Positions 3,538 to 18,246 of a stretch of 18,246 bases of DNA are shown here, piece by piece. The position numbers and the translations under genes were made by a program. Below the pieces are notes generated by a model. The model made no database searches. It was not told where the DNA came from and saw only the letters and a program-made list of their open reading frames with translations. The stretch lies in IMG/VR virus record IMGVR_UViG_2609459834_000002, positions 1 to 18,246 of that record; one strand, written 5' to 3'. Source of the stretch: a virus. Its lineage: Duplodnaviria; Heunggongvirae; Uroviricota; Caudoviricetes. The stretch's first letter is position 1; each line of letters starts with the position of its first letter.

Positions 3538-3616
3538 TTAGCCCCCTCTTAATTGCTGTTGGTCCTCTCAGATATGAGGGGAAGGGATCTTAATGACAGT
3601 CTGTTTATTATTTCAG

Positions 3617-3874
3617 TCAAATACTACCCTGTTGATGATTTCTCAGAAGCGAACTTGACTCCCAAGGGAAACTCAACTTTCCGTTAAAACCACCAGCAGA
3701 CATTCGTTCAATTTCCACAGAAATATCACTGAGCCGTTCTTCAAGCTCTGCTTTTTCTTTTACCAGACGGTTATAGCGGCTTAGATGAAGCTTTTGCTGC
3801 TCCAGCCAGTCTTCAAGCTGTTCAACAGTCATACCAGGGTTAAAAAAATATGGCTGCTGCTTTTCGCCCTGCAT
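3617..3874 (-). CDS. Hypothetical small protein (85 aa), first ORF of the late transcript
   Basis: Track ORF 3617-3943 trimmed to the ATG at 3874-3872, which has GGAGG 6 nt upstream. The longer version would include the terminator hairpin. Predicted helical, acidic; no family recognised. Confidence 0.5.
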   Translation of the reverse strand: MQGEKQQPYFFNPGMTVEQLEDWLEQQKLHLSRYNRLVKEKAELEERLSDISVEIERMSAGGFNGKLSFPWESSSLLRNHQQGSI

Positions 3875-3892
3875 TATTGACCTCCAGAAAAG

Positions 3893-3914
3893 CAAAAACC
3901 CCGCCGAAGCGAGG
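3893..3914 (-). terminator. tR'-like rho-independent terminator downstream of Q (minus strand)
   Basis: Minus-strand RNA CCUCGC-UUCG-GCGGGG (6-bp stem including one G-U pair, UUCG tetraloop) followed by U5. Lies about 50-60 nt downstream of the candidate late promoter, as for lambda pR'/tR'. Confidence 0.5.
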
Positions 3915-3964
3915 TTTGTTATGATTTCGTTAACGGCAGACATACAAAGCCCATCGTTAGGAGA

Positions 3965-3993
3965 ATCCTAACCAGATTTTTTGAAAAATGCAA
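3965..3993 (-). promoter_or_regulatory. Candidate late promoter (pR'-like) with presumed qut region
   Basis: Minus strand: -35 TTGCAT (plus 3988-3993), 17-nt spacer, -10 TAGGAT (plus 3965-3970), directly downstream of the Q stop at 4025. Hexamers are only moderate matches; the position is what supports the call. Confidence 0.3.
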
Positions 3994-4024
3994 GAATCAT
4001 GTCGCTATCTTCGGCGAAAATCAT

Positions 4025-4777
4025 TTATCTCGTCACTTTTCTTAATTGCGCCTCAGCATATGCTTCTTCCTGCCAGCACTTTGTCACCAGTTTATCAATG
4101 ACATCTGCATATCCTTTGTACCACTGATAATCCGTCAGGTCTGGTACCAGCTTCTGGACATGATGCCGCGCCAGTGTGGTTGGTAAACGGCTAAACCGGT
4201 TTCCATTGCAACGCCCACAAATCTTATAAACAGGCATGCCATGAAGCCGGGTTCTTTTTTCATCCAGGACAATACCTTTGCCCTTACACCCTCTGCACGC
4301 TGTGCTGACTTCTCCCTTACCATGACAATGCTGACATAGTTCCTTCACCCACTCTTCCTTGATAACAGATTCCCCGTTTCTGGAGTGTTTCACCACTTCG
4401 CGCAATACATTATGAAATCCCGTACCTGCACAATGCTCACAGCGAGCCTTACTTGCCGCAGATCTGGAATAATCAGCAAAGGCAAAATTCACAAGGTAAG
4501 GAATGATCTGTAGCCGGGTTTCTTCACTCAATTTATTCAATGTCGGGTTATCCAGTGCCATCGCGTAATTGAGCAGACCTTCAATCGCAAACTGAGGATC
4601 CTGAACACCAACTTTTGCCAGGAATAAGGCAAACCCAAGCGGTGCTTTCGACTGCACCATCCCCTGCGCAGCCATCACATCCGTAATCGTTAAACCACCT
4701 GAGCCTGTCGCCGGTGCGTCATCGCTCAATTTTGGAGATTTTGGGGAGTAATATTTTGGTAAGGCTTCAAGGTTCAT
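4025..4777 (-). CDS. Late-gene antitermination protein Q (phage 21/82-like Q family)
   Basis: ATG at 4777 with GGAG RBS 8 nt upstream, after trimming a 14-codon in-frame extension. Contains CxxC...CxxC zinc-binding-like motifs (CEHCAGTG, CQHCHGKG, CRGCKGKG, CGRCNG) and sits immediately upstream of the late promoter and lysis cassette. Confidence 0.85.
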   Translation of the reverse strand: MNLEALPKYYSPKSPKLSDDAPATGSGGLTITDVMAAQGMVQSKAPLGFALFLAKVGVQDPQFAIEGLLNYAMALDNPTLNKLSEETRLQIIPYLVNFAFADYSRSAASKARCEHCAGTGFHNVLREVVKHSRNGESVIKEEWVKELCQHCHGKGEVSTACRGCKGKGIVLDEKRTRLHGMPVYKICGRCNGNRFSRLPTTLARHHVQKLVPDLTDYQWYKGYADVIDKLVTKCWQEEAYAEAQLRKVTR

Positions 4778-15675: not shown

Positions 15676-16230
15676 ATGACAACTAAACACCCGGCGCACG
15701 GTCCTTTATCCCTCGATCGCCTGCACCAGATACGCGAACACCTGCAGCATGATACCCAGTACTCAAACGGCGGGAACAGAGCTTATATTCTCGCTGATAT
15801 GTTGAAGGTGATTGATGAGGTGCTGGCATCGAGGAACGCAGAGCCAGTATTGCCAGATGAAAAGCCGATGCCAGAAGCGTCGAAAATGCATGCAATAGAC
15901 GCTGTAGCTGCAATCGCAGAGGTCAGAGGATGGAACGCCTGCCGCGCCGTCATGCTTAAGGCTGGCAACTCTCCGGTAACTCAGGATGGTTACGTGCTGG
16001 TCCCGAAGAAACTAACCGCTGAGAACGGCGCAAAGAGTGTGCTGTCCGGTGAGTTTTCAGAAACGAAATTTATAAACTGCCCAGAGTGTTTTGGTGATGA
16101 TGATTGCGAAACCTGCGACGGCAGCGGAAGAATTGAAATCACCGTTCCTGTCACATGGACGACCATCAAAGCTATTTGGGCTAAAGGTGTCGAGCATTTC
16201 GCAGCAGCACCGCAGCAGGAGAATGTATAA
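15676..16230 (+). CDS. Hypothetical protein with C-terminal CxxC...CxxCxGxG zinc-finger-like motif
   Basis: 184 aa, tightly packed between neighbours. Motif CPECFGDDDCETCDGSG resembles a DnaJ-type zinc-finger repeat. Otherwise unassigned. Confidence 0.6.
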   Translation: MTTKHPAHGPLSLDRLHQIREHLQHDTQYSNGGNRAYILADMLKVIDEVLASRNAEPVLPDEKPMPEASKMHAIDAVAAIAEVRGWNACRAVMLKAGNSPVTQDGYVLVPKKLTAENGAKSVLSGEFSETKFINCPECFGDDDCETCDGSGRIEITVPVTWTTIKAIWAKGVEHFAAAPQQENV

Positions 16231-16804
16231 CGTGAACAATTTAATGATCGACCTTGAGTCCATGGGCAAAAAACCGAATGCCCCTATTGTCTCCATTGGT
16301 GCCGTATTCTTCGATCCGCAAAGCGGTGATCTTGGTCAGGAGTTTTACACCGCCGTTAATCTTGAAAGCGCTATGGAGCAGGGAGCTGTGCCGGATGGTG
16401 ACACTATTCTGTGGTGGTTAAGACAAAGCTCAGAAGCACGATCAGCAATCTGTGTTGATGATGCGATGCCGATATCGTCTGCCCTATCTGAACTGAGCCA
16501 TTTCATTAATCGGCATTCTGATAACCCAAAATATTTAAAAGTTTGGGGCAATGGAGCTACTTTCGACAACGTTATATTGCGCGGCGCATATGAGCGCGCC
16601 GGCCAGCTTTGCCCGTGGCAATTTTGGAACGATCACGACGTCAGAACCATCGTCACATTAGGCAGAGTTGTGGGTTTCGATCCAAAGCGAGATATGCCAT
16701 TCGATGGGGTTGCACATAACGCACTGGCCGATGCGCGACATCAAGCAAAATACGTGTCCGCGATCTGGCAGAAGTTGATTCCGGCCACCAGCAGAGACCT
16801 GTAA
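16223..16804 (+). CDS. DnaQ-like 3'-5' exonuclease (DEDD family)
   Basis: Exo I motif LMIDLESMG, later H-x4-D-type motif (GVAHNALADARHQAKY), about 190 aa. Start is ambiguous among ATG 16223, GTG 16232 (best-spaced relative to AGGAG at 16217-16221) and ATG 16244. Track ORF 16091-16804 is an in-frame upstream extension. Confidence 0.8.
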   Translation: MYNVNNLMIDLESMGKKPNAPIVSIGAVFFDPQSGDLGQEFYTAVNLESAMEQGAVPDGDTILWWLRQSSEARSAICVDDAMPISSALSELSHFINRHSDNPKYLKVWGNGATFDNVILRGAYERAGQLCPWQFWNDHDVRTIVTLGRVVGFDPKRDMPFDGVAHNALADARHQAKYVSAIWQKLIPATSRDL

Positions 16805-16842
16805 TTTTCCCTGGGTGCAGCCAGGTTGTATGGAGAATGTCT

Positions 16843-17115
16843 ATGAATACTTTGTTTTTACTTATGGCTGAGTTCAACACGCCTAACATCGAGCTGTCAG
16901 CTGTATGCCAAAAGTATTTCGGTATGAGCCCTAACACAGCAGAAGCGAAAGCAAATGCCTGTCAGTTGCCGATCCCGACTTATCGTGTAGGAACATCACA
17001 GAAAGCGAAGCGCTGCATCAACATTCAGGATCTTGCTGAGTATATAGACCAGCGGCGTGAAGAAGGCAGAATTGAGTGGGAAAGGGTCAGAACGAACAAA
17101 CAGAAAAATAGTTGA
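16843..17115 (+). CDS. PrtN-like small DNA-binding protein (tentative)
   Basis: Start at second ATG 16843 (GGAG 7 nt upstream). MNTLFLLMAEF...CQKYFGMSPNTAEAKANACQLPIPTYRVGTSQKAKRCINIQDLAEYID resembles the pyocin-activator PrtN family as recalled. Followed by a terminator. Confidence 0.5.
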   Translation: MNTLFLLMAEFNTPNIELSAVCQKYFGMSPNTAEAKANACQLPIPTYRVGTSQKAKRCINIQDLAEYIDQRREEGRIEWERVRTNKQKNS

Positions 17116-17141
17116 GTTTCACACAGATAAAAAAAGAAAAA

Positions 17142-17157
17142 CCCGCCAGATGGCGGG
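17142..17157. terminator. Rho-independent terminator between convergent genes (strong for minus strand, weaker for plus)
   Basis: CCCGCC-AGAT-GGCGGG hairpin. The minus-strand RNA is followed by a U-rich run (plus-strand A-rich 17128-17141); the plus strand has only CTTT after the stem. Confidence 0.6.
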
Positions 17158-17180
17158 CTTTCAAAAAGCACCAGCTATGA

Positions 17181-17354
17181 TCATGCTGCCTTGCGACGAC
17201 GAAGCTTACCCTGCTGCTCTTTACCAGAGACAATAGCGTGAGTGAACGCGTTAGGAGCAGCCTTCATCAGAACTTCAACAGCAGCACCCATACCTGCGAA
17301 TGCTTTCATTGTGTCGAACTTAACCTGTGGCTTGGTTGCTTTTTGATCTTTCAT
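17181..17354 (-). CDS. Hypothetical small basic protein (57 aa), absent from the ORF track
   Basis: ATG at 17354-17352 with GGGAG RBS 8 nt upstream; stop at 17183-17181. Product MKDQKATKPQVKFDTMKAFAGMGAAVEVLMKAAPNAFTHAIVSGKEQQGKLRRRKAA. Terminator about 20 nt downstream. Confidence 0.5.
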   Translation of the reverse strand: MKDQKATKPQVKFDTMKAFAGMGAAVEVLMKAAPNAFTHAIVSGKEQQGKLRRRKAA

Positions 17355-17549
17355 AGAAAACTCCCGAGACGATAAGGGCGCCTCTAACCTCTTAGTTAAA
17401 GTTAGCTTGTCCAGCCAACTTGTGCCAATCGGTTCCTCCGATTGGTGACATCGTTTTCAGTAGTGCGAATACATAACGACTGTCCCAGATGTACCTTTAA
17501 GGTAATCCGGATGGATATCCTACAATCTGTAGACACTCGGCGTCTACAT

Positions 17550-18083
17550 CTATTGTGCGAATTTAAGAAATGTCTCTTGCAGATTATCTGTGGCTGTAGA
17601 CATTACGTAGCCACACTTTTCCATACAAAAACCGAACGACTCATAAAATGGCCGCAATTCAGGAACTGGTTCAATGATTTGAACAACCTCACACTCGACA
17701 GCCTTACAAAAAACAAAGGCACTCATTAGTGTGAGCAAAACCATTCGCCCTTTTAGTGGGTGTGATTCATCTTCCCTTGAGAACCTTTCAACAATATGGA
17801 TGCGAAAGATTTTATCTTCAACCCCGTAAACACAAATTGCCGCCCCTGAAGGAATCCCCTGCACTACTCCTTGCTGAACAAGTTTGATGCAAAATTCATA
17901 CTTGTCATCAGAATTACCATAGGCACCGAGCATATAGTCCCACTCAAGCTCGCCATAACCACCACAGAGGATCTTGTAATCTTCATCACTGATCGGGCCA
18001 ACTGCGAGAGGCAACCCCACATGGTCAATAACTAACTGAATGTTGTTACGAACAGATTGACCTATCTCGTCTAAAGTGAGCAT
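17550..18083 (-). CDS. Hypothetical protein, possibly GNAT-like (acyl-CoA N-acyltransferase) fold; function unassigned
   Basis: 177 aa with GAGAGG RBS and a perfect TATAAT (plus 18117-18122, read on minus) upstream. C-terminal ELRPFYESFGF resembles the GNAT beta-bulge/C-terminal region, but no clear Q/RxxGxG/A acetyl-CoA motif was seen. Confidence 0.45.
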   Translation of the reverse strand: MLTLDEIGQSVRNNIQLVIDHVGLPLAVGPISDEDYKILCGGYGELEWDYMLGAYGNSDDKYEFCIKLVQQGVVQGIPSGAAICVYGVEDKIFRIHIVERFSREDESHPLKGRMVLLTLMSAFVFCKAVECEVVQIIEPVPELRPFYESFGFCMEKCGYVMSTATDNLQETFLKFAQ

Positions 18084-18246
18084 TAGAGCCTCTCAAGCGG
18101 AACGGCGAAAGACCCCATTATACCTATTCCCGCCATGCAATGCCTGGTAAGAGTTGCGTATTAAATTAAAAACATCGGGTCCCCAATAGGCCCCCATAAA
18201 ACACACAACACCGCTATTTCTCTGTACAATCCGTCCTATCGAGCAT

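Follow-up and report, generated by a model that had tools for sequence, protein, structure and literature searches.

Toxins of about 160-180 amino acids (aa) with a GNAT fold, encoded on mobile elements together with a small ribbon-helix-helix (RHH) partner, make up the GNAT/DUF1778 family of toxin-antitoxin (TA) modules of type II (TacAT, AtaRT, KacAT, ItaRT; family definition from PMC9177977), in which the antitoxin gene lies directly upstream of the toxin gene and usually overlaps it. Phage morons and hot-spot cargo, such as old and tin at the gpA-gpQ position of P2, genes placed between Q and lysis genes, and conversion genes adjacent to the attachment site (att), carry their own promoter element and terminator, are inserted between backbone genes and vary between close relatives, being present in some, absent from others or swapped. 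TA modules with the toxin gene first and an extra promoter for the antitoxin are exemplified by rnlAB, higBA and mqsRA. Here we compare these systems with a locus at the end of an 18,246-nt stretch of viral DNA (Caudoviricetes; IMG/VR record IMGVR_UViG_2609459834_000002), the whole of which is referred to as the window. On the minus strand the locus consists of a larger gene (A), a spacer of 195 nt, a smaller gene (B) and a terminator, and it forms a two-gene cassette of the moron type that is horizontally mobile and lies at the end nearest to att in a lambdoid prophage integrated in dusA. The best current hypothesis is that it is most plausibly a TA-like or defence cassette, because A co-occurs with B in a strict though one-sided manner, because it occupies slots known for defence and TA genes, and because it is swapped for a Panacea-type TA cassette at the dusA slot.

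All homologues of A with at least 59% identity (97 loci) are followed, 93-197 nt downstream and in the same orientation, by B. An apparent exception, an A from Pectobacterium with 45% identity, is followed 80 nt downstream by a divergent B (MIMTQSDKKTQYRVTDVFTRMGVAMEELLQAAPHMIESGKFEGNELHGKPRDRQKAA), and relatives of A with 21-24% identity in Pantoea and Salmonella have an open reading frame (ORF) of 52-57 aa and a terminator 83-110 nt downstream. No intact A without a small downstream ORF was found among about 100 loci, including the relatives at 21-45% identity. Seen from A, the two genes are an obligate pair. The co-occurrence is one-sided: both genes were covered in only 359 of the 566 matching Escherichia coli records, and B occurs without A. 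Complete E. coli genomes carried both genes in 356 of 5426 cases (about 6-7%), and the contig index places the cassette in many Salmonella assemblies.

The unit of A, spacer, B and terminator is found at unrelated places in unrelated temperate elements, which strongly supports the proposal of a preliminary description, made from the sequence alone, that it is an autonomous accessory module; a -10 element and a terminator belonging to the unit bear this out as well. It is located between xis and the dusA att in mEp460, the window and Salmonella lysogens, between the gene for the Q antiterminator and those for lysis in Citrobacter and Salmonella prophages and in Hafnia, within a cluster of tail genes in Photorhabdus, between gpA and gpQ (the gene for the portal) in P2-like prophages, and adjoining the integrase at the edge of a Pantoea island as well as in a Salmonella region resembling an integrative and conjugative element (ICE). 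The gpA-gpQ slot of P2 has been described as a defence hotspot (PMC9122126, PMC13586616). A conserved -10 element, a terminator, insertion between backbone genes and swapping in sister phages are all observed, in exactly the slots in which morons are found; with its two genes, a structured leader inside the unit and probably a second promoter, the cassette departs from them.

The same dusA slot holds, in Lys8385Vzw, SKA5 and 16 IMG/VR contigs, a gene for an antitoxin with a Panacea (SocA) domain, a 139-aa ORF and B. In this alternative cargo (positions 3550-4751 of locus L018, from Lys8385Vzw; also L019 and L164-L179) the gene for the 190-aa antitoxin is overlapped by 4 nt by the 139-aa ORF, a putative toxin gene without a Pfam match, and a spacer of 39 nt that lacks a structured leader precedes the same B and the same terminator; the cargo proteins are unrelated to A. 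About 85 nt past the att core (...GGGAGCCTATTGGGAACC...; about 18150-18200 in the window and about 4950-5010 in L018) are common to the GNAT-type and Panacea-type cassettes, which then diverge. This shared segment is the left boundary of the cargo swap and is possibly an integrase arm-type site, and the two cargos rejoin just 5' of the Shine-Dalgarno (SD) sequence of B. B sits in the right-hand recombination flank, and its occurrence alone is therefore weaker evidence that B works without A.

The two ORFs, the TATAAT hexamer, the spacer, the terminator and both inverted repeats of the preliminary description were all recovered where it had placed them (Table 1).

Table 1. Features of the cassette and its surroundings. 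Positions refer to the window; the last three rows are sites from other lineages.
Feature	Position	Strand	Basis or remark
-10 hexamer TATAAT of candidate promoter P_A	18117-18122	-	34 nt before ATG; sequence
SD sequence of gene A, GAGAGG	18089-18094	-	Kept as GAGAGG/GAGG in homologues
Gene A, 177 aa	17550-18083	-	ORF; phrog_4350
Spacer, 195 nt	17355-17549	-	Conserved multi-hairpin RNA on sense strand
H1, TGTAGAC-N7-GTCTACA (second inverted repeat of the preliminary description)	17528-17548	-	Directly after A stop; fold
Candidate promoter P_B, TAGACG (17541-17546), 18-nt spacer, TAGGAT (17517-17522)	17517-17546	-	Sequence conservation
H2 (CCGGAUUACCU / AGGUACAUCUGG)	17485-17510	-	Minimum free energy fold; core UACC/GGUA invariant, outer pairs covary
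H3, variable-sequence helix closing a variable loop	17447-17484	-	Fold; both-side changes in 6 of 9 pairs
H4, perfect 8-bp inverted repeat CCAATCGG-N5-CCGATTGG	17425-17445	-	94% of cells pair, 19 sequences
H5 (AAGUUGGCU / AGCUAACUU)	17399-17421	-	84% of cells pair; 4 of 9 pairs changed on both sides (GC/AU/UA)
H5b, small hairpin	17385-17398	-	Fold
H6 (GAGGCG / CGUCUC)	17366-17384	-	Fold; abuts SD sequence of B; GUCUC arm invariant
SD sequence of gene B, GGGAG	17361-17365	-	6 nt before ATG; sequence
Gene B, 57 aa	17181-17354	-	ORF; phrog_2741
Intrinsic terminator of the cassette	17127-17162	-	11-bp stem (17137-17162), then T run
Prophage/host junction, att core ATGCTCGAT within dusA	18238-18246	-	Salmonella lysogen L180, mEp460, Lys8385Vzw
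xis, PrtN-family excisionase gene	16837-17115	+	Near right end of window
Rv2179c-like 3'-5' exoribonuclease-domain gene	16091-16804	+	Near right end of window
Promoter-like site, Pectobacterium	After A stop		TAGATA-16-TACAAT, upstream TG
Promoter-like site, Pantoea	After A stop		TTGATC-17-TATAGT
Promoter-like site, Salmonella ICE-like region	After A stop		TTGTAA-17-TAGAAT

It was structure prediction, together with two fold searches, and not sequence that bore out the GNAT-like fold proposed for A. A had no match in Pfam or NCBIfam at E ≤ 1, where sequence-level similarity to known resistance GNAT families was likewise absent, none in PADLOC-DB v2 at E ≤ 1 and none in a profile search of PDB sequences. 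The sole label for A is phrog_4350, annotated as "unknown function", and PF00583 was touched by only 1 of 37 representatives of the A family (E = 0.006). The family is small, with 87 clusters at 50% identity among 1.8 billion representatives, and its members with organism names all come from Enterobacterales; scans of IMG/VR with the distant relatives P0101 and P0111 gave no matches, and a literature search for peptide strings of A and B found no paper. The AlphaFold2 model of A (32 homologues; predicted local distance difference test, pLDDT, 88; predicted template modelling score, pTM, 0.87) has a mixed alpha/beta GNAT core in the order beta1-alpha1-alpha2-beta2-4-alpha3-beta5-alpha4-beta6. 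A Foldseek search of PDB with this model had TacT3, KacT, AtaT and NatD within the top 10, and the matches among viral models (BFVD) are GNATs. At the level of the predicted fold, A is confirmed as a very divergent GNAT, a putative acyl-CoA N-acyltransferase.

In the sequence of A an invariant, motif-B-like Y147...G151-F152 is present, and Y147, which is followed by a conserved F-G-F, is located in alpha4 at the usual place of the GNAT catalytic Tyr. Both Y147 and W48 remain invariant in an alignment of 37 sequences down to 16-20% identity. A loop of the form H-P-L-x-G-x-M (HPLKGRM in the window) is invariant before alpha3, at the position where GNATs bind the acetyl-CoA pyrophosphate; compared with the canonical Q/R-x-x-G-x-G/A it retains the central Gly and a basic residue, while the final G/A is Met. 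A is under strong purifying selection, with a ratio of non-synonymous to synonymous substitution (dN/dS) of 0.05-0.10. Five distinct frameshifted alleles of A exist in public assemblies (P0019, P0020, P0046, P0047 and P0049), and one of the frameshifts falls in a T6 run (GTTTTTTG, about 17705-17712 in the window). Such alleles are in keeping with a gene that is costly to carry, but errors of sequencing or assembly or ordinary prophage decay may also account for them.

B is a basic protein (pI 10.5, net charge +7.6) with 9 Lys and 3 Arg that matches phrog_2741 at 2.5e-35 (PHROG). It had no match in Pfam, NCBIfam or PADLOC (the last at E ≤ 1), and a sequence profile search of PDB was empty. The AlphaFold2 model has a mean pLDDT of 61 with a single helix (residues 15-32) and low-confidence tails, and B is accordingly predicted to be mostly disordered apart from this helix. 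The structure prediction suggested in the preliminary description gave a GNAT fold for A and a single helix for B. B is truly coding (dN/dS 0.08-0.27). Across lineages its synonymous divergence is 2- to 13-fold below that of A: in the same pairs of loci the proportion of synonymous differences (pS) is 0.05-0.44 for B versus 0.68-0.88 for A, and the nucleotide identity to the mEp460 copy is 97% for B and 83% for A. The low value for B could be due to translational selection, an extra constraint at the RNA level or recent exchange. Judged by eye, the codons of B (GGT, CGT, CTG, TTC, AAC) are typical of highly expressed enterobacterial genes. The C-terminus of B reads ...RRRKAA, and ...KAA or ...AVA is retained in divergent lineages; the resemblance to RRKKAI, the ClpX degron of MuA (PMC8138137), is a lead only.

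The spacer between A and B was available in 36 distinct versions from about 100 loci, of which 19 non-redundant ones were aligned with MAFFT; the alignment was therefore not fitted to any structure. The sense RNA of the spacer folds at -73.7 kcal/mol (z = -5.0 versus 200 dinucleotide shuffles, a control that overstates significance because the sequences are related), and RNAalifold recovers H2, H4 and H5 from the 19-spacer alignment. The fairer comparison is with controls that retain this relatedness, in which the 3' partners are slid by 1-3 columns. When the window fold is counted on the alignment, pairing is seen in 77% of the cells (slid controls, 31-43%), covariation scores 0.211 (controls, 0.06-0.08), and changes on both sides occur in 73 cells (controls, 19-34). 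The helices differ in their conservation. The variants of H4 are U·G and G·U wobbles and a change from C-G to U-A, tolerated on the sense strand only, and its loop is unconserved; H3 is missing in two spacers (L004 and L005), the 5' arm of H6 is partly misaligned by MAFFT, and H1, which overlaps the -35-like box of P_B, pairs in 62% of the alignment cells, a different hairpin (ACGGGATCCCGT) being found there in other lineages.

The two inverted repeats go beyond chance expectation. That they serve the small protein as operators in the DNA, as the preliminary description implied, is not favoured: over all helices 125 G·U pairs were counted versus 53 A·C, and in 17 of the 19 spacers the sense strand folds more stably than its antisense (mean -7.4 kcal/mol). 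The repeats are therefore better explained as RNA hairpins on the strand of the genes. The leader was found only in loci with A and B. H4 contains a 14-base palindrome that was found at 119 IMG/VR loci; 42 of these have the leader, and all 42 have both genes, whereas the other 77 are chance palindromes without similarity to the leader, and the palindrome was rejected as a general phage motif. A long covarying multi-hairpin 5' region next to the SD sequence of a small basic protein recalls the autoregulatory leaders of ribosomal protein mRNAs and the leaders of type I toxin mRNAs. Unlike these, the spacer gave no sense-strand match in a covariance search of Rfam 15 at E ≤ 10, and conserved signals of an antisense RNA are absent. 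A terminator-like site was flagged on the plus strand at H4, but its T run is unconserved in other lineages and the wobble pairs favour the sense strand, both of which speak against an antisense small RNA ending there. A 44-aa ORF in the spacer (17402-17536, minus strand) was likewise discarded as coding, since the lengths of the spacers (156-197 nt) differ by non-multiples of three.

In four spacers (L010, L095, L097 and L015) there is complementarity between a segment directly past the conserved TAGGAT box (GGAUUACCUU) and the SD region of B (AGAGGUAAUC; columns 44-60 and 205-225 of alignment A4), and the motif GGUAA/UUACC occurs three times in the leader. The sequences hint that alternative leader pairings could mask the SD sequence of B; this complementarity is not present in the window's own lineage. 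The short direct repeat CTGTAGAC to which the preliminary description drew attention is present, as a 9-nt repeat (CTGTAGACA) at 17527-17535 and 17594-17602. It was given no meaning, as about 0.5 such pairs (CTGTAGAC(A)) are expected by chance in the region by our own arithmetic, and the repeat is not conserved in mEp460.

The -10 position of P_A is kept across homologous cassettes (TATAAT, TACAAT, TAAACT, GATAAT), although a strict sigma-70 two-hexamer scan called no promoter upstream of A, because an acceptable -35 is lacking. Both hexamers of P_B are invariant or nearly so in 19 of 19 spacers, and the TAG is the stop codon of A in many; the match is 8 of 12 in the window, which is under the scan threshold. 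In three divergent lineages the scan found promoter-like sites at the stop codon of A or no more than about 20 nt past it (Table 1). As 2-4 such sites are expected per kb, each of them alone is unremarkable, but that they turn up in one and the same spot suggests a separate promoter for B, which would be translated from a long structured leader. The terminator stands back to back with the end of xis and is kept in all homologous cassettes.

How far does the cassette resemble the known systems? It shares with the GNAT/DUF1778 systems the size and fold of the larger protein, the catalytic-type Tyr in alpha4, a small partner and the location on mobile elements. It differs from them in the reversed gene order, in a partner that is a basic single-helix protein without RHH or DUF1778, in the structured RNA between the genes and in the lack of sequence-profile similarity. 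No RHH/DUF1778 gene is found upstream of A, where only the non-coding promoter and att sequence is located. In addition, A is acidic (pI 4.6, net charge -12), whereas the toxins of that family bind tRNA, and its composition would argue against tRNA binding. The cassette is therefore not a member of the GNAT/RHH family, although it may work like one: an RHH gene is lacking upstream, the genes stand in the opposite order, the candidate toxin is acidic and profiles do not match. With rnlAB, higBA and mqsRA it has in common that the larger protein comes first and a small, predicted-disordered partner second, with promoter-like sites at the end of the first gene; it differs in having no homology to them, and a long structured leader is unusual among such modules. 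The opposite charges of A and B recall NatD/Naa40, RimI and Naa50, N-terminal or protein acetyltransferases in which an acidic enzyme faces a basic partner, but A has only 10-11% identity to these and a non-canonical acetyl-CoA loop. A type III TA system of the ToxIN kind, which would have tandem direct RNA repeats upstream of an endoribonuclease toxin, was rejected: 17100-18246 contains no tandem repeats, the RNA comes downstream of A, and the fold of A is that of a GNAT.

Transcription would enter the cassette from its weak own promoter (-10 TATAAT) and probably also from host dusA (see below), and the transcript would run through A, a promoter-like element over its stop codon, a leader of about 190 nt with six to seven hairpins, B and the strong terminator. 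The most likely logic would be that of a reverse-order TA-like or abortive-infection-type system. A would be an acetyl-CoA-dependent effector, with a basic protein or peptide as a more likely target than tRNA, and B its cognate neutraliser or regulator, oversupplied by means of its own promoter and the structured leader and probably short-lived. When the supply of B fails, for example through shut-off of the host by an infecting phage or through loss of the element, A would become active. What the analysis establishes is the layout of the cassette, the GNAT fold of A, the structured RNA, the co-occurrence of the genes and their mobility; promoter use, the A-B interaction, toxicity, the lability of B and any anti-phage effect are what we infer here. 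It is tentatively proposed, with somewhat less than even confidence, that A is a harmful or conditional effector dependent on acetyl-CoA, that an abundant and short-lived B neutralises it or is its substrate, and that loss of B activates A. It is conceivable, but rather doubtful, that A, leader and B together form an undescribed GNAT-based conflict system in which A is held in check by a labile B or acetylates B in a manner resembling type VII systems, in which the leader and the promoter at the stop codon set the level of B, and in which shut-off aborts infection.

Several observations weigh against a TA-like or defence function. Homology to B cannot be demonstrated for the small ORFs next to the most distant relatives of A, and the product of one of these is acidic. 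Cassettes with B only may just reflect its location in the recombination flank by xis, and the high-expression codons of B are as fitting for a structural or regulatory protein made in abundance as for an antitoxin. Neither protein is matched by a PADLOC, Pfam or NCBIfam model; in contrast to the GNAT toxins that acetylate tRNA, A is acidic, and B is without RHH or another recognisable antitoxin domain. The fold-search scores for GNAT toxins barely exceed those for many ordinary GNATs, and with a non-canonical motif-A loop catalysis by A is not assured.

An alternative is an enzyme-substrate pair, in which B, as an abundant binder of nucleic acid or ribosomes that alters the physiology of the lysogen, would do the work and A would tune or switch it by acetylation of its N-terminus or of some of its 9 lysines. 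A would then be useless without B, while B could act alone, as is consistent with the many genomes that keep B intact without A; an acidic A facing a basic, lysine-rich B, and the high-expression codons, very low synonymous divergence and strong SD sequence of B point the same way. We regard this as unlikely, as the small partner of distant relatives varies in charge and sequence, which better fits a fast-co-evolving binding partner, and as the hot-spot contexts favour conflict systems. It is also possible to view A as a detoxifier provided by lysogenic conversion, acting on an antibiotic, a microcin, a polyamine or a toxic metabolite, with B as a regulator or chaperone of its expression. The moron architecture with transcription oriented for the lysogen from the att end agrees with this, as do the streptothricin, glucosamine-6-P, spermidine and glyphosate acetyltransferases among the fold matches. 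However, it does not account for why A should be strictly paired with a disordered 57-aa protein over the range of 21-100% identity, why a TA cassette takes its place at the dusA slot, or why it is located in the P2 defence hotspot, and A has no sequence similarity to known resistance GNAT families; a detoxifying role is held to be quite improbable.

It is finally conceivable that A and B, as morons or backbone genes without relation to each other, just happen to be neighbours, the inverted repeats being recombination scars or operators in the DNA. That B is 93-98% identical in phages without A, and far more conserved in nucleotides than A, is what would be expected of a backbone flank by xis. 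On the other hand the unit of A, spacer, B and terminator moves as one into five unrelated contexts, every homologue of A has a small ORF downstream, the leader is found only with both genes, and strand-specific wobble pairs argue for RNA and not DNA sites, so that independence of the two genes appears very improbable. A TA-like or defence cassette remains the hypothesis of choice. If it is correct, the cassette is a compact two-gene system, widespread in Enterobacterales, that joins the defence repertoire of prophages and departs from known GNAT toxin modules in its reversed order, its non-RHH partner and its RNA leader. The locus also contributes a conserved cis-acting RNA that is new, a clear example, at the dusA slot, of cassettes replacing one another, and a candidate bacterial GNAT effector directed at protein. 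If the TA or defence reading fails, a moron with clear boundaries is left.

The window corresponds to the early-left arm of a lambdoid prophage of mosaic make-up with mEp460 and SfV as relatives. The early-left operon ends with the Rv2179c-like gene and xis, on which B and A converge from the minus strand, and a hairpin terminator is common to the convergent xis and B. The att core forms the exact end of the window, the minus strand from 18246 reading ATGCTCGAT AGG.... In a Salmonella lysogen (L180, 2553-2633) the 5' end of host dusA (MQPETQSSALPAYRFSIAPMLD) is joined to phage DNA at this core, and a surrogate 5' end of dusA precedes the same core in mEp460 and Lys8385Vzw, as described for dusA-specific integrases (PMC4482086). 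Fusion at att yields a short truncated DusA' ORF (MQPETQSSALPAYRFSIAPMLDRTYCTVK) ending in a TAG stop codon at 18214-18216, and a terminator scan found no terminator-like sites between the att junction and A. Because the 5' end of host dusA is fused at the att core, the host dusA promoter points into the cassette in the lysogen, and a read-through transcript from dusA would probably enter it. That the native dusA promoter is directed into the cassette explains the orientation of the unit, which is opposite to that of the early-left operon.

Further genes are found next to the cassette in two other prophages. In that of Hafnia (L186-L189, about 1000-2600) a 319-352-aa protein with a RelA_SpoT domain, possibly a toxSAS/CapRel-like defence gene product, is encoded directly upstream of A and B, between Q and the holin gene. 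In a Salmonella prophage (L184, 3881-4348) an extra gene for a 155-aa protein with a helix-turn-helix and two transmembrane segments (Pfam 2TM) lies between B and xis, a further small accessory insert at the junction of these two genes.

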